DNA from: an uncultured Desulfobulbaceae bacterium
GTDB taxonomy: Bacteria > Desulfobacterota > Dissulfuribacteria > Dissulfuribacterales > DYLC01
Reading direction: 5' to 3'
NCBI GenBank assembly: GCA_964427245.1
Contig: CAYRSX010000040.1
Coordinates: 91,258-155,257 of the forward strand
DNA length: 64,000 bases
The translations under genes were made by a program, and so were the position numbers. Shown in pieces: positions 1,425 through 8,338 of the stretch; position 1 is the stretch's first letter, and each line of letters starts with the position of its first letter. Below the pieces are notes generated by a model that did not search any database, was not told the origin of the DNA, and saw only the letters and a list, made by a program, of their open reading frames with translations.

Positions 1425-1522
1425 CCGAGCGTAGCGCTTTTACGTGTCATTCCGAGCGTAGAGAGGAATCTTAAGATTTCTCACACCACCCCGCCCTTCG
1501 GGCACTCACTCCACCGGAGGGG
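1425..1522 (+). repeat. 98-nt intergenic repeat unit, copy A (contains two 'cattccgagcgtag' cores)
   Basis: Hand alignment to 5938-6035 gives 95/98 identical bases in the same orientation. Confidence 0.9.
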
Positions 1523-1836: not shown

Positions 1837-3444
1837 TTAAGGGGTCTTAAGCCCCAGTCTGCGGCTTATTCCCGCTATAACGGCCTTGAGTTCCGGCACA
1901 TTCAGGGTATAAACCGCGGCGGCATAGAACAGGGCGCCCATGGCCACCCCTGCCATAAGGCCTAATCCCTGAACCCAGAAACCCTGGGCCTGCCACATAT
2001 TTTGCCACAGTCTTACCAGAATGCCCATGCCTATGGATGCCAGTCCTATCTTGCAGACAGACGGCGTCAGTCTTTGCAATGCGAATCCCCCGATTTTTTT
2101 GTGCAGGATTCTGGCCAGAAGCATCAGATTCGCTATGGCGCTGATGGAGGTGGCAAGGGCGATGGACCTGTGTTCAAGATGCCGCAGGGTGAGAAGGATA
2201 AACAGTATGTTGCAGAGTACCGCCAGGAAACTGCCGATCACAGGCCACTTGGTGTCGTTCAGGGCATAAAATACAGGCGCTATGACCTTGACGCCTGCGT
2301 ATGCCGTAAGTCCAAGGGCGTAGAGTTCCAGCGCCTGAGCAGTCATGAGAGTGTCATGGGGCAGAAATCTGCCGTGTTCATAGATGAGCCTTATGATGGG
2401 TTTAGCCAGAATGAAAAGCCCAACTGATGCAGGAACGGCCAGGCCGATACACAAAATCAGGCTTGAATGTAGTACATCCTTCAGCCGATTCATATCCATT
2501 GCAGCAGCCATGCGCGAAATGGCTGGCATACTTGCCACCGACATGGCCACGCCGAAAAGCCCTATGGGAAAAAGCATGAATCGAAAGGCATAGTTGAGCC
2601 AGGCTACGCTGCCTTCTGCGCATTGGGAGGCAAAGTTGGTGTTGACGAAGATGTTGATCTGTGTGGCTGAGAGCCCTATTATGGCAGGCAGCATGAGCCG
2701 GAAGATGCGTTTTAGCCCTGGTTCAGCCGGATTCCATGTCGGTTTTATGTGAAAGCCCTGTTTTTTAAGAAGCGGTATTTGAATCAGAAGTTGCATGATA
2801 CCGCCTGCCAATGTGCCCACGGCCATGCCTATTATGGCGTTTATGCCCCAAAAGGGCAGAATCAGAGCGAGCCCTGCGCCCACAATAATGGAGCCTATGT
2901 TGAAGCAGGCCGATGAAAACGCCGGAATAAAGAAGAAGCCCTTGGTATTCAGAATACCCATTATAATAGATGCCTGGGATACAAAGAGCAGAAACGGTGC
3001 CATGATGAGCGTAAGCAAGACGGTCAAGTCTGTCTTACCTGAGACGGCCTGAAAATTAGGGGATATGAGTTGAACCAGTTCCCTAGAAAAGACCATTTCC
3101 AGCACAACAACAAGAGAGACCACAGCGGCCATGACTGTAAAGACATTGTTGACCAGCTGTTTTAGCTCTTCAGCCGTCCGTTTTTTTTCGTAGTCCGTAA
3201 AGACAGTGACGAATGCAGAGCTCAATGCGCCTTCTGCAAAGAGGTCACGCAACAGATTGGGAATGCGAAAGGCCACCACAAATGCATCTGCGGCCATTCC
3301 TGCACCGAAAAGCCACGCAAATACCTGCTCCCGCACTACGCCCATAATGCGGGAAAGAAAGACGGCTGTTCCGACAGCCCCTGCCGATCGTGCAAGCTTT
3401 TGAGCATCAGTTGTGGATTTAGTCACATTTAGGGGCCGTTGCAT
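1837..3444 (-). CDS. murJ: lipid II flippase MurJ/MviN
   Basis: 'FLSRIMGVVREQVFAWLFGAGMAADAFVVAFRIPNLLRDLFAEGALSSAFV' is the conserved MurJ N-terminal signature, and the protein is polytopic and hydrophobic throughout. The start is ambiguous: GTG 3483, ATG 3444, or GTG 3426 overlapping the upstream stop. Confidence 0.85.
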   Translation of the reverse strand: MQRPLNVTKSTTDAQKLARSAGAVGTAVFLSRIMGVVREQVFAWLFGAGMAADAFVVAFRIPNLLRDLFAEGALSSAFVTVFTDYEKKRTAEELKQLVNNVFTVMAAVVSLVVVLEMVFSRELVQLISPNFQAVSGKTDLTVLLTLIMAPFLLFVSQASIIMGILNTKGFFFIPAFSSACFNIGSIIVGAGLALILPFWGINAIIGMAVGTLAGGIMQLLIQIPLLKKQGFHIKPTWNPAEPGLKRIFRLMLPAIIGLSATQINIFVNTNFASQCAEGSVAWLNYAFRFMLFPIGLFGVAMSVASMPAISRMAAAMDMNRLKDVLHSSLILCIGLAVPASVGLFILAKPIIRLIYEHGRFLPHDTLMTAQALELYALGLTAYAGVKVIAPVFYALNDTKWPVIGSFLAVLCNILFILLTLRHLEHRSIALATSISAIANLMLLARILHKKIGGFALQRLTPSVCKIGLASIGMGILVRLWQNMWQAQGFWVQGLGLMAGVAMGALFYAAAVYTLNVPELKAVIAGISRRLGLKTP

Positions 3445-5812
3445 GGGGTATGCAGTAGGGACCTTCTGGTGTGTCCACGACACTGAAGCCTAATTGTTGC
3501 AATTGGTTGCGTAGCTGGTCAGACTGCACCCAATCCCTTGCCTGTTTGGCCTGTTCTCGAAGGTTAAGGAGTTTTTTTGCTTCATTTGGCAGATAGGATG
3601 GGTTTAGAATTCGTCTGTCAAGAATGCCCAAAATGGCATCCATCTCCAACATAACGCCAGAGATGGCCTGCTTTTCTTCACTTAAAAGAGGGCGTTCTCT
3701 TTTTATCAGATGCACCTCTTTGATCAATTTCAAAAGGGCGGTAATGGCATTGGCCACATTGAGGTCATCGTCCAATGCGGCAAGGAATTCTGTACGTGCT
3801 GCTGATATCATTTGGGTTAACTGTTCTGTGGCCGCTGTTTCTTTCTGTTTATTTGTTTTTTTGTCTTCCGGTGAACTTGAGCACAACTGGAGTTCGTACC
3901 AGAATTCATCTATTTTTTGTAGGAGTCTGGCCGCTTCCTCTATGGCGTTGCATGAGTAATGAATGGGTTTCCTGTAGTGGGTTTTTAGGAGGAAAAAACG
4001 GATTCCACGGCTGGACCAGCCCTGTTCCCGAAGCTCCCGCAGCGTGACGATGTTGTTATTGGCCCTGGAGATTTTCTTGCCCTTCCAATAGACCAGGTCG
4101 CTGTGCAGCCAGTAACGGGCTAATGGTTTGCCGGTGAGGGCCATGGAGATGGCGATTTCGTTTTCATGATGAGGGAACAACAGGCTTTTGTCGCTGGTGT
4201 GAATATCAAAGGTTTCTCCCAAGTATCTTCTGGACATGGCCACGCATTCGATATGCAGCCCAGGCCTCACTCGCCCCCATTCCGTCTGAAAACCTATGCC
4301 GTGTTTCAGTTCCTGCAGCGTGACCCTTTTGAAGAGCGTGAAGTCGGCTGGGTGGTCCTTTTCATAGTTGTCGAGATCAACAGTGCGTCCTATATCCAGA
4401 CCCTTTGAGTCTATGCGGGAAAGGCAGCCGTAGTTGGAGAGCTTGGAGATGTCGAAATATACGGAGCCGTGTTTTATATAGGCATAGCCCTTTTCCAGGA
4501 GTTTTCTTGTGATCCCCAGCATGTCTTCCACGTGTTCACTGGCCCTTGGATAGAAAGTAGCTGGCTTGACATTTAACAAGGAAAGATCATTTAGAAATTT
4601 TTGAATATAATCCTGAGTAAGCTCGGCAAGGGACACCTTGCTGGCCATGGCCTCTCCAATGGTCTTGTCATCGATATCGGTGATGTTCATGACATGAATC
4701 ACCTCAAAACCTTTAGCTTCCAAAAAACGCTGAATCAGGTCGGAGACCAGCACACGTCGGCATAGACCCAGATGTGTTTCTTCGTAGGCTGTTGGGCCGC
4801 AGCTATACATGCTAATGCGTTTTTCCGTGCCAGCCTCTTCAAATTTTTCCTTTTTAAGGGATAAACTGTTATAAAAGCGCAAACCGTTTCCTCGGTCTTT
4901 ATCGTCTCTTTTCTGCGGCACAGCAAATAGGCCTGTACTCAGATACCGCTCGCCGCCGTCCGGGAAAATGACCACTACGATCCCTTCTTCGAGCAGGGCT
5001 GCCTCCTGCAGGGCTGCTGCAAAGGCTGCCCCTGAACTCATGCCTACAAACAGCCCCTCCTCTTTGGCCAGACGGCGCGCATATTCAAATGCCTCTTCGT
5101 CATGAATGTTTATAACGGCATCGGGTAGATTTTTGTCATAGATGCCGGGTTTATAGGATTCCTTCATGTTTTTGAGGCCTTGTATCTTGTGCCCGAGATA
5201 TGGCTCCACTCCCACCATGCGAACCTTTGGATTTAATTCCCTCATACGCTTGGTGATGCCCATAAGAGTGCCGGTGGTCCCCATTGTGGCCACTATGGTA
5301 TTCACTTTGCCCTGCGTCTGCTCCCATATCTCAAGGGATGTGCCGTTGTAATGAGAGAGCCAGTTGTCTGAATTGTTAAACTGGTCGGTCAGAAAGTAGC
5401 GCTCCGGGTACTCTCGACCCAGGTTATATATCGCCTCTATGGCCCCGTCCGTGCCTTGTTTGGCAGGGGTGAGCAATATTTTCGCTCCAAATGCTTGCAT
5501 AATCTGCCTGCGTTCGATACTGGCTGATTCGCTCATGGCTATCAGGCAACGATAGCCTTTGACAGCACATACCATGGCCAGCCCGATGCCCGTATTGCCG
5601 CTGCTTGCCTCTGCCACTATTCGATTTTTGGATAGCTCGCTTCTGGCTTCAGCGGCCTGAATCATGGAAAGGGCGATGCGGTCTTTTATGGAACCCCCTG
5701 GATTGAAAGACTCCATCTTGGCCAATATTCGAATATTTTTGTATGGGTTCAGACGGGTTATGGGAATCAAAGGTGTATTTCCTATTTTTTCCAGTATGGA
5801 GTTGGGCCACAT
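3419..5812 (-). CDS. fusion protein: PLP-dependent cysteine synthase (CysK/CysM-type) + cysteinyl-tRNA synthetase-like module with degenerate class-I signatures
   Basis: N-terminal half: 'NPGGSIKDR' (PLP lysine), 'SSGNTG', 'GMSSGAA'. C-terminal half: 'YSCGPTAYEETHLGLC', 'NITDIDDKTI', 'RPGLHIEC', 'FPHHENEIA', 'KISRA', and the CysRS C-terminal tail. AGGAGG lies 6 nt before ATG 5812. Confidence 0.85.
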   Translation of the reverse strand: MWPNSILEKIGNTPLIPITRLNPYKNIRILAKMESFNPGGSIKDRIALSMIQAAEARSELSKNRIVAEASSGNTGIGLAMVCAVKGYRCLIAMSESASIERRQIMQAFGAKILLTPAKQGTDGAIEAIYNLGREYPERYFLTDQFNNSDNWLSHYNGTSLEIWEQTQGKVNTIVATMGTTGTLMGITKRMRELNPKVRMVGVEPYLGHKIQGLKNMKESYKPGIYDKNLPDAVINIHDEEAFEYARRLAKEEGLFVGMSSGAAFAAALQEAALLEEGIVVVIFPDGGERYLSTGLFAVPQKRDDKDRGNGLRFYNSLSLKKEKFEEAGTEKRISMYSCGPTAYEETHLGLCRRVLVSDLIQRFLEAKGFEVIHVMNITDIDDKTIGEAMASKVSLAELTQDYIQKFLNDLSLLNVKPATFYPRASEHVEDMLGITRKLLEKGYAYIKHGSVYFDISKLSNYGCLSRIDSKGLDIGRTVDLDNYEKDHPADFTLFKRVTLQELKHGIGFQTEWGRVRPGLHIECVAMSRRYLGETFDIHTSDKSLLFPHHENEIAISMALTGKPLARYWLHSDLVYWKGKKISRANNNIVTLRELREQGWSSRGIRFFLLKTHYRKPIHYSCNAIEEAARLLQKIDEFWYELQLCSSSPEDKKTNKQKETAATEQLTQMISAARTEFLAALDDDLNVANAITALLKLIKEVHLIKRERPLLSEEKQAISGVMLEMDAILGILDRRILNPSYLPNEAKKLLNLREQAKQARDWVQSDQLRNQLQQLGFSVVDTPEGPYCIPHATAPKCD

Positions 5813-5937
5813 GACATACCTCCTGTATTGAGCATGACAACCGGCATTAAATACCACTTGTCATGGGTTTGCAAGAAAGGTGTAAAAACAGAAAAAGAAA
5901 CGAAAAAGAAAGGACAGGCATTTTTTGCGTTGTCATT

Positions 5938-6035
5938 CCGAGCGTAGCGCTTTTACGTGTCATTCCGAGCGTAGCGAGGAATCTTAAGATTTCTCACACC
6001 ACCCAGCCCTTCGGGCACTCACTCCACAGGAGGGG
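5938..6035 (+). repeat. 98-nt intergenic repeat unit, copy B
   Basis: 95/98 identity to 1425-1522. Preceded by an extra 'gtcatt', so two full 'gtcattccgagcgtag' cores are present (5932-5947 and 5958-5973). Confidence 0.9.
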
Positions 6036-6091
6036 TTCTTGTTAATGACTGGACAATTTAATAGCTGCTAAAATGACAGCAACCGTTTTCC

Positions 6092-6120
6092 GTAGGGGCG
6101 GGTTCTGAATCCTCCCCTAC
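6092..6120. repeat. GC-rich palindromic repeat, diverged copy
   Basis: 'gtaggggcgggttctgaatcctcccctac' is related to 1364-1390. Confidence 0.7.
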
Positions 6121-6128
6121 CTTGTATC

Positions 6129-6157
6129 TTGACATCTTATAGCTATATGGCTATTTT
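6129..6157 (+). promoter_or_regulatory. candidate sigma70-type promoter of the arsR-like operon
   Basis: TTGACA (6129-6134), 17-nt spacer, TATTTT (6152-6157). This would place the transcription start at or next to ATG 6165, possibly giving a leaderless mRNA. Sequence pattern only. Confidence 0.3.
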
Positions 6158-6164
6158 TCTATTT

Positions 6165-6521
6165 ATGAAAAAGTTAATTTTATGTCTCAAGGCCGTTGCA
6201 GACGGCACCCGCTTCAAGATACTCAAGCTCTTGGCCTTGCAGCCTGCCTGTGTCTGTGAGCTGACAGCAGTTTTGGGTCTGGCCCAGCCCACTGTCTCCA
6301 AGCATCTGCGCATTCTGGAACAAGCAGGTTTTGTGGAGTCCGAGAGAAACGGCATGCGTGTGGACTACCGTCTGAACCCCCGGCCTGATGCCGAAGTCGG
6401 AGAGCTTTTGCAGAGCATCTCTCATTGGCTGGAGGATGATAGTGAGATAGAAAGGCTGCGTATGCAACTCAAGGCAGTTTGCGGCAAGGTCTGTGATTTT
6501 GCAAAGGGGGACACATGCTGA
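6165..6521 (+). CDS. ArsR/SmtB family metalloregulator
   Basis: 'LKAVADGTRFKILKLLALQPACVCELTAVLGLAQPTVSKHLRILEQAGFV' is a winged helix-turn-helix with the CVC metal(loid) site. The start could instead be 6147 or 6129 (TTG). Confidence 0.8.
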   Translation: MKKLILCLKAVADGTRFKILKLLALQPACVCELTAVLGLAQPTVSKHLRILEQAGFVESERNGMRVDYRLNPRPDAEVGELLQSISHWLEDDSEIERLRMQLKAVCGKVCDFAKGDTC

Positions 6522-7474
6522 AGATATTTACTCTGTTGGCAAATCTCATTGTCTATGATTGGCTTGGTATGGAAAAGGGCAGGCACCTTACCGATACCAT
6601 TCATTTCTTTATAGAAGATACCACAAAGATATTCTTTTTGCTTACGGTCATCATCTTTTTTGTGTCCATTATTCGCAGTTTCTTTACTCCGGAAAGGACT
6701 CGCCGGTTGCTATCTGGCAAAAGGCTGTTTCTGGGCAATATTCTGGCGGCTGGGTTGGGTGTGGTCACGCCATTTTGTTCCTGCTCCGCCTGCCCATTGT
6801 TCATTGGATTTGTGGAGTCAGGGATTCCTCTTGGAGTGACCTTTAGCTTTTTGATTTCATCGCCTATGGTAAACGAAGTGGCCCTGGTGCTGCTCTTGGG
6901 TTTGTTCGGTTGGAAGATTGCCGGCCTCTATCTGATATCTGGCCTTCTGGTGGCGATTGTAGCCGGTATAGTGATAGGGAAGCTCAATATGGAGCGCTAT
7001 GTTCAGGACTATGTCTGGCAGCTTCGCATGGGTGAGGTCCAAGAAACAGGAATGACGTGGCATGAGCGCATCGATTATGCCAAGGGTTATGTGCAGGACA
7101 TCCTGCGGCGCATTTGGCCCTATGTGCTTGGCGGAATTGGTGTAGGCGCTTTGATTCACGGCTATGTGCCAGAGGATTTCCTGCTTCGATATGCCGGGCC
7201 CGGCAACCCATTTGCCGTCCCTATAGCTGTGCTCATCGGGGTTCCGCTTTACAGCAATGCAGCAGGGGTCATTCCGGTGGTACAGGCCGTTATGTCGAAA
7301 GGACTGCCTTTGGGTACGACTTTGGCCTTTATGATGGCGGTGACCGCCCTTTCTGTCCCTGAAGCCACTATTCTTACGCAGGTGTTAAAAAAGGAATTAC
7401 TTTTCATATTCTTCGGCGTAGTGACCATTGCCATTATCGCAGTGGGATACCTTTTCAATTTTATGCTTGCATAG
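6515..7474 (+). CDS. COG0701/ArsP-like permease
   Basis: Polytopic membrane protein with the 'TPFCSCSACPLFIGF' motif typical of this permease family. Its start overlaps the arsR-like stop (ATGCTGA). Confidence 0.7.
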   Translation: MLKIFTLLANLIVYDWLGMEKGRHLTDTIHFFIEDTTKIFFLLTVIIFFVSIIRSFFTPERTRRLLSGKRLFLGNILAAGLGVVTPFCSCSACPLFIGFVESGIPLGVTFSFLISSPMVNEVALVLLLGLFGWKIAGLYLISGLLVAIVAGIVIGKLNMERYVQDYVWQLRMGEVQETGMTWHERIDYAKGYVQDILRRIWPYVLGGIGVGALIHGYVPEDFLLRYAGPGNPFAVPIAVLIGVPLYSNAAGVIPVVQAVMSKGLPLGTTLAFMMAVTALSVPEATILTQVLKKELLFIFFGVVTIAIIAVGYLFNFMLA

Positions 7475-7483
7475 AAAACGAAT

Positions 7484-7639
7484 ATGACAGAAAAAATCTG
7501 CTGGTGTTTTGGTTATACTGATGCTGATATTGTTGAGGATATAAAAAAACATGGCCGATCCACCATATTGGAGCGCATTGTGGATGAGAAAAAGGACGGT
7601 CACTGTGATTGCAGCCATAAAAATCCAAAGGGGAAGTGA
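7484..7639 (+). CDS. small Cys-rich BFD-like (2Fe-2S)/metal-binding protein, 51 aa (below ORF-track cutoff)
   Basis: Hand translation gives MTEKICWCFGYTDADIVEDIKKHGRSTILERIVDEKKDGHCDCSHKNPKGK*. The pattern is CxC-F-x-Y-T...I followed by a second CxC pair. It starts 10 nt after the permease stop. Confidence 0.55.
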   Translation: MTEKICWCFGYTDADIVEDIKKHGRSTILERIVDEKKDGHCDCSHKNPKGK

Positions 7640-7702
7640 TGTATTGGCGATGTCCGTCGTGTTGCGGAACAGGCTGTTAAACTTTTGAAGTAGATAGATA
7701 TA

Positions 7703-8338
7703 ATGGAAAGAGCGATACTAATCAGAAAGGCTAAGTGGCTTGCAATAATAACTATAGGTTATAATGTGATAGAAGGCCTGATTTCTGTTCTCTTCGGTCT
7801 GCAGGATGACACCCTTGCTCTTTTCGGTTTTGGAATGGATTCTTTTGTAGAGATTATATCAGGCGCTGGCATTCTGCATATGATTTTTCGTATGGAGCGT
7901 GCAAATGGCGAGAAGCATGACGCCTTTGAAAGGCTGGCGCTTTTTATTACGGGCGTAGCCTTCTATTTGTTGGCTTTTGGTCTTATTGTAACTGCATGTA
8001 TGAATATTTATTTAGGAAAGATGCCTGAAACTACCTTTTGGGGTATAGTTGTATCATTGTTATCTATTTTTACTATGTATTTTTTGATGCGCATAAAATT
8101 AACTGTTGGAAGACAATTAAATTCTGAAGCAATTATACAAGATGCCCATTGTACACGTATGTGTATTTATCTTTCTTGGTTATTACTTTCAGCAAGTATT
8201 GGTTTTGAATTGACAAAAATAGGTTATATCGATTCTATAGGTGCTCTTGGCATTGCATATTTATCATGGAAGGAAGGAAAGGAATCGTTTCAAAAGGCTC
8301 GTGGAGAGATATGTACTTGTTGTTCTTGTGGCCATTAG
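7703..8338 (+). CDS. cation-efflux (CDF)-like membrane protein lacking the cytoplasmic domain, Cys-rich tail
   Basis: 'WLAIITIGYNVIEGLISVLFGLQDDTLALFGFGMDSFVEIISG' resembles CDF TM1-TM2. The C-terminus is 'CTCCSCGH'. The assignment is tentative. Confidence 0.45.
   Translation: MERAILIRKAKWLAIITIGYNVIEGLISVLFGLQDDTLALFGFGMDSFVEIISGAGILHMIFRMERANGEKHDAFERLALFITGVAFYLLAFGLIVTACMNIYLGKMPETTFWGIVVSLLSIFTMYFLMRIKLTVGRQLNSEAIIQDAHCTRMCIYLSWLLLSASIGFELTKIGYIDSIGALGIAYLSWKEGKESFQKARGEICTCCSCGH

Follow-up and report, generated by a model that had tools for sequence, protein, structure and literature searches.

A cysteine synthase fused to a cysteinyl-tRNA synthetase-like module with altered ATP-site signatures in an uncultured Desulfobulbaceae bacterium

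The DNA analyzed here, hereafter called the window, is a stretch of 64,000 nucleotides from an uncultured Desulfobulbaceae bacterium (contig CAYRSX010000040.1, positions 91,258 to 155,257 of the forward strand). Its minus strand, on which all features of the gene in question lie, carries at 3419..5812 a single open reading frame (ORF) of 797 codons plus stop that encodes a CysM-type cysteine synthase fused to a module resembling cysteinyl-tRNA synthetase (CysRS). The frame runs without interruption from an ATG at 5812-5810 to a stop codon at 3421-3419 and is preceded by a Shine-Dalgarno sequence, AGGAGG, at 5819..5824 with a spacer of 6 nt. This gene model had been proposed in an initial annotation made from the sequence alone; direct reading of the sequence bore it out, and every peptide quoted there was found in the translation. 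A longer frame would be possible from a GTG at 5857, but we favored the ATG at 5812 because the homologues start at this position. A protein identical to the fusion (P0001) is encoded on a 186,459-bp NCBI contig and on a Logan contig.

The N-terminal half (residues 1-297; 4922..5812) was assigned to pyridoxal phosphate (PLP)-dependent cysteine synthases of the CysM type by Pfam PALP (residues 7-285, E-value 1.2e-73), by the cysK/M subfamily profile TIGR01136 (353.4 bits, above its cutoff of 344.15), and by matches to solved structures, the best of which is E. coli CysM (2v03, 7e-77), with Salmonella CysM also among the nearest. It displays the PLP lysine K43 in GGSIKDR, the Asn loop SSGNTG, the phosphate loop GTTGT, and the Ser-rich turn GMSSGAA with the Ser that contacts the pyridine nitrogen, so the claim of an intact cysteine synthase holds. 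These PLP-site motifs are invariant across the family described below, including fused members in which the CysRS-like site is destroyed. Because this catalytic motif set is complete, we propose that residues 1-297 form an active cysteine synthase. The stricter CysM equivalog TIGR01138 is missed (359.2 bits against a cutoff of 394.2), and by its sequence the N-terminal half is thus CysM-like yet a distinct subtype. While it shares all PLP-site motifs and the fold with E. coli CysM (2V03/2BHS; TMt 0.92 on 2bhs in Foldseek), the window protein differs from that enzyme and from M. tuberculosis CysM (3DWG) by a distinctive loop, HKIQGLKNMKESY, which is invariant in the family, and by a C-terminal extension of ~490 residues. 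The sequence does not discriminate between O-acetylserine and O-phosphoserine as acceptor substrate or between sulfide, thiosulfate, and a thiocarboxylate as sulfur donor.

A linker of 13 residues (298-310; 4883..4921) with low model confidence and a family identity of 0-50% leads into the CysRS-like half. There, the class-I CysRS catalytic domain tRNA-synt_1e of Pfam covers residues 328-628 (1.5e-89). A Rossmann fold plus connective-peptide (CP) domain occupies residues 311-565 (4118..4882), as delimited by Pfam, structure alignments, and an alignment numbered after the E. coli enzyme, and it is followed by a stem-contact fold with a degenerate KMSKS loop (residues 566-640; 3893..4117) that was placed by alignments to CysRS structures. 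The helical-bundle domain DALR_2 (residues 641-735; 3608..3892) was recognized by Pfam over residues 675-731 (7.9e-09) and keeps its DDDLN motif. At the C-terminus lies the anticodon-binding domain CysS_C (residues 736-797; 3422..3607; Pfam 741-782, 4.8e-06), in which R752, D765, R768, and D780 correspond to E. coli R423, D436, R439, and D451. In an AlphaFold2 model built on 50 family sequences (mean predicted local distance difference test score, pLDDT, 85.4), this half superposes on chain B of the E. coli CysRS-tRNA complex 1u0b with a TMt of 0.85 (Foldseek), while the only long stretches of low confidence are a loop of the CysM half, the linker (pLDDT <50 for residues 291-308), and a loop of the CP domain. 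The CysRS-like half is therefore full length, as the initial annotation had stated.

Motif positions were fixed by HMMER alignment to solved CysRS structures and by the E. coli CysS-numbered alignment. HIGH reads HLGL (H347-L350; 4763-4774), GWHIEC reads GLHIEC with L519 in place of W205 (4244-4261), HGGGxDL reads HTSDKSL (H224-GGGxD229 equals H538-TSDKS543; 4181-4201), and KMSKS reads KISRA (K266-S270 equals K580-A584; 4061-4075). All four zinc/cysteine ligands are kept and align as previously claimed, i.e., C28 as C338, C209 as C523, H234 as H548, and E238 as E552. For comparison, we compiled 107 canonical CysRS representatives and called a position near-invariant if it was conserved in at least 93% of them; since this set had been chosen for KMSKS or KMAKS, K269 and S270 are invariant by construction, while the remaining positions are independent. 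The window protein retains 54 of the 65 near-invariant positions and has lost 11 (W184F, G201V, W205L, S210V, G226S, G227D, D229S, Q241I, M267I, K269R, and S270A). Among these, W205, which lies over the cysteine site, is Trp in all 107 canonical representatives, and G226, G227, and D229, now S540, D541, and S543, are found in 107/107, 100/107, and 106/107, respectively.

The presence of both domains (PALP and tRNA-synt_1e) and the placement of the motifs in the initial annotation were thus upheld, and so were most of the departures from the ATP-site signatures, though two differences had been overstated. Canonical enzymes have Asn (63/107) or His (44/107) at position 40 and Gly, Thr, Ala, or Cys at position 225, so that strings such as 'HIGN' and 'HTGG' are normal. 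The Leu of the window protein at position 40 is an extra departure that stands outside the 65-position set because canonical position 40 is either Asn or His. No second HxG[HN] or KMSK-like string was found anywhere in the fusion protein, and the substitutions are therefore not explained away by canonical motifs located elsewhere in it.

A protein search over about 5.8 billion proteins for the same architecture retrieved at least 120 clusters of fusions with 738-826 residues (mostly 775-810) that are 54-100% identical to the window protein. Named sources among the listed clusters are Dissulfuribacterales, Dissulfuribacter thermophilus, Dissulfurimicrobium hydrothermale, Thermosulfuriphilus, and Desulfocapsaceae. 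A scan of GTDB with one genome per species found the fusion or an adjacent gene pair in 29 of the best 80 loci, with carriers in the Desulfobulbales (Desulfofustis, Desulfocapsa, Desulfopila, and Ca. Desulfobulbus rimicarensis), the Desulfobacterales (Desulforapulum, Desulfobacula, and Desulfatibacillum), the Desulfovibrionales, Smithella, and Caldimicrobium. The hosts belong to sulfur-disproportionating or sulfate-reducing lineages. In every complete fused gene that we examined, from several orders, the CysRS-like module of ~490 residues is full length. A single metagenome-assembled genome (MAG) has the fusion as two overlapping ORFs of 719 and 416 aa (L036, 9917-12290, plus strand), which is probably a frameshift, an assembly error, or a recent pseudogene.

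Alignment of 120 fused proteins, comprising 113 of type A and 7 of type B, revealed that the altered ATP site is shared throughout. Lys269 is replaced in all of them (retained in 0/113 and 0/7, respectively), with Arg (73), Pro (12), Ser (8), or Ala (5) recorded among the 113 type-A proteins. Gly226 is likewise found in 0% of either type. The Desulfobulbia-type family has Ser or Cys instead in 100% of its members, and in the remainder of the clade beyond the Desulfobulbia/Dissulfuribacteria type Gly226 is often replaced. Trp184, Gly201, and Gln241 stand at 0% and Ser210 at 0-10% in all four fused groups tabulated. The HIGH motif varies within type A, where only 72% of the proteins have His at its first position and the fourth is taken by Leu, Met, His, Asn, Lys, or Val; conservation of the four zinc ligands reaches 100% among the aligned fused proteins. 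The subclade of the window (P0001-P0005 together with P0046 and P0069) adds W205L, G227D, D229S, and S270A to these changes. The string FDIHTSDKSL is identical in relatives that share only 55-58% identity overall, so that these substitutions are to be regarded as fixed, maintained states and not as random decay. Within the same subclade, the Rossmann plus CP core is 82-91% identical, compared to 87-91% for the CysM half, i.e., it is about as conserved as its fusion partner, so the CysRS-like half is no decaying relic. The idea that the erosion was peculiar to a single gene was consequently not borne out, as it is an old and conserved state across a large family. We found no description of this fusion or paralogue in the literature (most subscription journals lay beyond our coverage) and no mention of the fusion in PMC2922099 or PMC5424206. 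The family thus appears to be uncharacterized, with its members being labeled 'cysteine--tRNA ligase' in databases because they pass the cutoff of the cysS equivalog TIGR00435.

To place the family among CysRS proteins, we combined a HMMER search of 1.84 billion representatives with motif reading and a distance tree. All CysRS-like sequences with degenerate ATP motifs fall into a single clade apart from canonical CysRS in this simple neighbor-joining tree, in which long-branch effects are possible. The clade takes in fused proteins of roughly 780 aa as well as unfused proteins of 460-510 aa, and every member carries two markers, the replacement of W184 by Phe, Leu, or Met and of G201 by Val, Ile, Ala, or Leu. 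We further delimit it by a fusion to, or a position directly behind, a CysM with the QGLKN loop and by retained anticodon-domain invariants. Position 269 is not Lys in any examined member, fused or unfused, except for L024. The window protein clusters inside the clade and has its defining features (W184F, G201V, K269R, the fusion itself, and R752/D765/R768/D780). It has the five-domain architecture, the zinc ligands, and the anticodon-domain invariants in common with canonical CysS (E. coli 1LI5, 1LI7, and 1U0B) but differs from it by the fused CysM, the altered ATP signatures, W184F/G201V, and its membership in this separate clade. Judged by the ATP-site features that define the enzyme, the window protein is not a canonical CysRS, despite passing the profile cutoff.

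Loss of the active site is graded across the clade. The Pseudobdellovibrionaceae member L024, an adjacent-gene pair, has both clade markers but keeps HIGN, GGG, and KMSKS. Proteins of the Desulfobulbia/Dissulfuribacteria type, including the window protein, have an altered ATP site while retaining the zinc site and most of the active-site shell. In Desulfobacterales members, the loop with KMSKS is missing, and some of them have lost C209 as well. Finally, members from Desulfovibrionales are devoid of C28, C209, E238, H37, H206, H224, and KMSKS altogether. Throughout this series, the equivalents of R423, D436, R439, and D451 are kept in 98-100% across subgroups, including members with a dead catalytic site (counted, outside type A, for clade members in which the C-terminus is present). 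In the E. coli CysRS-tRNA(Cys) complex 1U0B, the C-terminal domain reads the GCA anticodon, and we take these residues to be among its contacts.

Physical or genetic coupling to CysM is not confined to the fused forms. Two unfused clade members follow a separate CysM gene (296-305 aa) at distances of 2 and 4 nt, and at one of these loci the separate CysM gene shows the QGLKN loop of the fused family. Elsewhere, a Nanoarchaeota MAG encodes a fusion of CysM with a fully canonical CysRS (P0131, 768 aa), and such a CysRS adjoins CysM in a Falkowbacteria MAG (L041) and in an archaeon (L043). These three couples from DPANN and CPR lineages with small genomes keep HIGN, GGG, KMSKS, W184, and G201, and by their sequences they are probably true bifunctional couples that possibly represent the ancestral state of the family. 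Besides these, two canonical CysRS proteins (P0220, 711 aa, and P0335, 705 aa) carry an N-terminal hexapeptide-repeat domain resembling serine acetyltransferase and constitute a second type of fusion between a cysteine-biosynthesis enzyme and CysRS. Another CysRS representative (P0136, 858 aa) was matched in three stretches, with DALR_2 at 317-374 before a complete catalytic domain at 411-722; this arrangement may reflect a tandem CysRS, a partial duplication, or an error in the assembly of the gene.

One contig informs on co-existence with the canonical enzyme. JGI contig Ga0377239_000086 (269,753 bp) bears a canonical CysRS (P0168, 493 aa, with HIGH, RPGWHIEC, HGGGLDL, and KMSKS; PF01406 435 bits) and, about 160 kb away, a split clade member with its CysM (P0123, with HIGT, HTGSVDH, and KMARS; PF01406 290 bits). 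Together with the separate clade and the plainly dead sites of other members, this upheld the earlier proposal that the CysRS-like half is a CysRS paralogue. No second CysRS was found within 10 kb at 90 loci, and a comparison of contigs with fused forms to contigs with canonical CysRS found none in common. The cultured Desulfobulbales isolate Desulfolithobacter dissulfuricans expresses a cysteine--tRNA ligase of 487 aa according to the supplement of PMC9751629, which has no row for a fused protein, and no match was found in the supplements of the D. alkaliphilus paper. Since the Desulfovibrionales and Desulfobacterales members of the clade cannot be synthetases, their hosts must have another route to Cys-tRNA. 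Beside the canonical cysS P0168 lie a SerA-like phosphoglycerate dehydrogenase with an ACT domain and a class-V aminotransferase (L091, 1795-4475, minus strand), i.e., the phosphoserine branch that feeds cysteine synthesis.

Our preferred reading, to which we assign a probability of roughly 55%, is that the CysRS-like half no longer aminoacylates and instead serves as a ligand-binding regulator or tether of the fused, active cysteine synthase. The family would have started from a cysM-cysS couple, adjacent or fused, with an active synthetase. In Thermodesulfobacteriota, the coupled copy would then have become a paralogue beside a separate housekeeping CysRS, so that amino-acid activation was no longer selected, and this redundant coupled synthetase would have been retained for a role other than aminoacylation. 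We consider a canonical coupled ancestor followed by redundancy to be the parsimonious ordering of these events. That selection for amino-acid activation ended is suggested by the absence of the second Lys of KMSKS, the drift of HIGH, the replacement of Gly226, and the loss of the whole site in some orders; we infer from these residues that the CysRS-like half no longer activates cysteine. As far as the alignments tell, the fold, the link to CysM, and the anticodon-binding domain are under selection throughout the clade, and in the lineage of the window the same is true of the zinc-thiolate cysteine pocket and of most of the active-site shell.

From this pattern of conservation, we predict that the CysRS-like half binds tRNA(Cys), docking it via the GCA anticodon, and that in the lineage of the window it additionally binds cysteine at the zinc site. 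Cysteine synthase activity could then be adjusted to demand through feedback by cysteine, as in HisZ, or through uncharged tRNA(Cys) as a starvation signal, as in GCN2. Such a demand-adjusting role appears most likely for the CysRS-like half, and it is less likely that it merely tethers cysteine production to the pool of tRNA(Cys) and CysRS. More tentatively, and clearly with lower odds than our preferred reading overall, tRNA(Cys) may be a physiological ligand of the cysteine synthase, such that its charging state gates CysM or that the CysRS-derived half positions it for cysteine synthesis at or on this tRNA.

Functionally, the window protein seems to resemble pseudo-synthetases of the HisZ or GCN2 type most closely. 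HisZ is a HisRS paralogue without adenylation activity that acts as regulatory subunit of HisG and mediates feedback by histidine (PMC9437257). As in the window protein, a synthetase-derived module without catalytic signatures is physically joined to the enzyme that makes the cognate amino acid, and HisZ co-exists with a true synthetase, as was seen for the CysRS-like clade in one related genome (with split member P0123). However, HisZ is a separate subunit derived from class II without an anticodon-binding domain, whereas the window module is of class I, covalently fused, and best conserved in its anticodon domain. GCN2 of eukaryotes, in which an inactive HisRS-like domain fused to a kinase senses uncharged tRNA, combines a synthetase-like domain having tRNA-binding features with an effector enzyme and offers a functional analogy. 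Here, the effector is a biosynthetic PLP enzyme instead of a kinase, the host is bacterial, and the predicted specificity is for a single tRNA, via the Cys anticodon. To our knowledge, GCN2-like logic is not known in bacteria.

For CysRS itself, a 2022 review of synthetase paralogues covers only CysRS* and MshC (PMC9437257). MshC, the ATP-dependent cysteine:GlcN-Ins ligase (PMC9437257), is like the window protein a CysRS-derived paralogue with a zinc/cysteine pocket, and its structures 8hfm and 3c8z are matched at 5e-40. We rejected identity with MshC (TIGR03447 195.5 bits against a cutoff of 485.1) given the degenerate ATP motifs and the presence of the anticodon domain. MshC keeps HIGH and KMSKS and is devoid of the C-terminal anticodon domain, a pattern opposite to that of the window protein. 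Because the ligase reaction needs an ATP site, MshC-like chemistry is the least supported of the three functions that the initial annotation had considered. CysRS* of some Desulfobacterales, as outlined in PMC9437257 after Mukai et al. 2017, is an active enzyme without anticodon-binding domain that is genetically coupled to selC*/selB*. On that outline, it resembles the window family as a non-canonical CysRS paralogue of the same phylum beside the normal enzyme. Identity with CysRS* as outlined there was likewise rejected, given that the window protein has DALR_2, CysS_C, and the CysM fusion, that no tRNA gene was found in the 64-kb window, and that its neighbors are murJ and a cluster of arsR-like and permease genes.

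Several observations weigh against our preferred reading. The window protein passes the cysS equivalog TIGR00435 with 380.4 bits against a cutoff of 340, and it retains the initial residues of both HIGH (His) and KMSKS (Lys), has an Arg at position 269, and preserves the entire zinc site. Some class I synthetases function with deviant signatures, e.g., GluRS with HVGG and many ArgRS without canonical KMSKS. The active-site shell is conserved beyond what a pure tRNA tether would require. A tblastn search of the window with both halves found no second cysS or cysK and, with 64 kb covered and no canonical cysS seen, the fusion could still be the sole CysRS of this genome. Moreover, tRNA binding, cysteine binding, and any allostery are predicted from conservation, the arrangement of domains in the model is uncertain (predicted TM-score, pTM, 0.63), and neither a conserved partner gene nor a regulatory RNA provides independent functional context.

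Much of this would fit a divergent but working CysRS, possibly the only one of its genome, to which the fused CysM hands fresh cysteine for tRNA charging. We regard this as the most serious alternative, though an unlikely one. Such an enzyme would account for the TIGR00435 score, for the intact zinc site alongside T68, D69, H206, E208, H224, H235, H256, and K266 with Arg at 269, for the retained anticodon domain, and for the strong purifying selection on the core. It would also agree with a housekeeping-like context, often upstream of murJ, with the absence of a second cysS from the 64-kb window, and with the couples of CysM and fully canonical CysRS that establish this design elsewhere. However, Lys269, Gly226, and the His or Asn at position 40 are at or near 100% in the 107 canonical representatives (for K269 partly through the selection of the set) and are all replaced here, and the window subclade has lost W205, G227, D229, and S270 on top. 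HIGH varies within the family, which is unexpected for a catalytic motif, sister lineages of the clade have unmistakably dead sites, and one clade member shares a contig with a canonical CysRS.

Alternatively, the remodeled pocket may perform new chemistry, with cysteine itself or a product of CysM (such as S-sulfocysteine or cysteine persulfide) as substrate, e.g., an ATP-independent transfer, CARS-like handling of persulfides, or a SepCysS-like reaction in which the CysM domain converts an aminoacyl-tRNA(Cys) precursor on the tRNA. This is appealing given that the replacement residues themselves are conserved (Ser or Cys at 226 throughout the Desulfobulbia type and an identical TSDKSL at 55-58% identity), that the active-site shell and zinc site are strongly constrained, that the hosts disproportionate sulfur or reduce sulfate, and that a ThiF-family gene lies immediately behind the pair at one split locus. 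We nevertheless consider it improbable, as the neighborhood has no conserved SepRS, sulfur-carrier protein, or other pathway partner and as other orders lose zinc ligands yet keep the fusion and the anticodon domain. Since the pocket is dispensable in those orders, any new chemistry would have to be lineage-specific. A CARS-like persulfide synthase, in which PLP is reportedly bound by four lysines (E. coli K73, K76, K266, and K269), was set aside because two of these are replaced in the window protein, with Gly at position 76 and Arg at 269. The ThiF-family gene in question (E1-like adenylyltransferase; L010, 6553-7293, plus strand) directly follows a split CysM and CysRS-like pair and recalls the CysO/MoeZ/CysM sulfur-carrier route of M. 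tuberculosis, but it was seen at this one locus only and is not recurrent.

That the CysRS-like half is an inert relic or a structural or oligomerization appendage of CysM without any ligand role is very improbable since, for all the progressive decay of catalytic motifs across the clade, the module is full length in all complete fused genes from several orders, the anticodon-domain invariants stand at 98-100% in members with a dead active site as well, conservation of the core matches that of the CysM half in the lineage of the window, and split forms keep the CysRS-like gene as a separate ORF.

On balance, we thus lean toward viewing the fusion as a pseudo-synthetase, derived from an aminoacyl-tRNA synthetase, that is joined to the enzyme making its cognate amino acid. 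If the module does sense cysteine or tRNA(Cys), it would represent a new control of cysteine synthesis in sulfur-living organisms and a third kind of CysRS paralogue besides MshC and CysRS*. If tRNA(Cys) is the ligand, it would be a bacterial single-polypeptide link of amino-acid synthesis to its tRNA that is distinct from SepRS/SepCysS. The family also forms a natural series from canonical CysRS coupled to CysM via forms with only the zinc site to fully dead sites, and this series shows which parts of a synthetase are still selected after loss of aminoacylation, namely the anticodon-binding domain. Because TIGR00435 also serves as a single-copy phylogenetic marker, a non-canonical paralogue of this distribution affects annotation, pathway reconstruction, and marker-gene counts in Thermodesulfobacteriota. 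Dissulfuribacter thermophilus and Dissulfurimicrobium hydrothermale, two sources of family members, are to our understanding cultured species, and experiments on the family should therefore be feasible.

The genomic context of the fusion gene shows no sign of a specialized pathway. Clustering of the neighbors of 33 loci, in which we looked for sulfur carriers, JAMM proteases, serine acetyltransferase, and SepRS, found no conserved operon partner; synteny is lineage-specific and involves only housekeeping genes (murJ, lptD, a NusG-like gene, HU, holB, surE, and ferredoxin). In the window, murJ for the lipid II flippase (1837 to about 3444, minus strand) overlaps the 3' end of the fusion ORF by 26 nt, and this location of its start within the end of the ORF suggests co-transcription or translational coupling. 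The same gene lies directly downstream of the fusion at four loci, i.e., in the window, in D. thermophilus (L002), and at L004 and L011. An Rfam scan of 5600-6300 returned nothing at E <= 1, with neither a riboswitch nor a T-box upstream of the fusion, and scans for promoters and terminators yielded signals no better than chance.

On the other side of the fusion gene, a divergent cluster at 6129-8338 (plus strand) comprises genes for an ArsR-family helix-turn-helix regulator (6129-6521), an ArsP_1-type permease (6515-7474), and a cation-efflux (CDF) protein (7703-8338). Between this arsR-like gene and the fusion gene, the intergenic region contains two tandem copies of a 19-nt element, CGCTACGCTCGGAATGACA, at 5931-5949 and 5958-5976 (minus strand), 27 nt apart. 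A third copy with one mismatch is located at 1445-1463 (minus strand), compared to 0 matches in shuffled sequence, and the element could serve the ArsR-family regulator as its operator or represent a small dispersed repeat.

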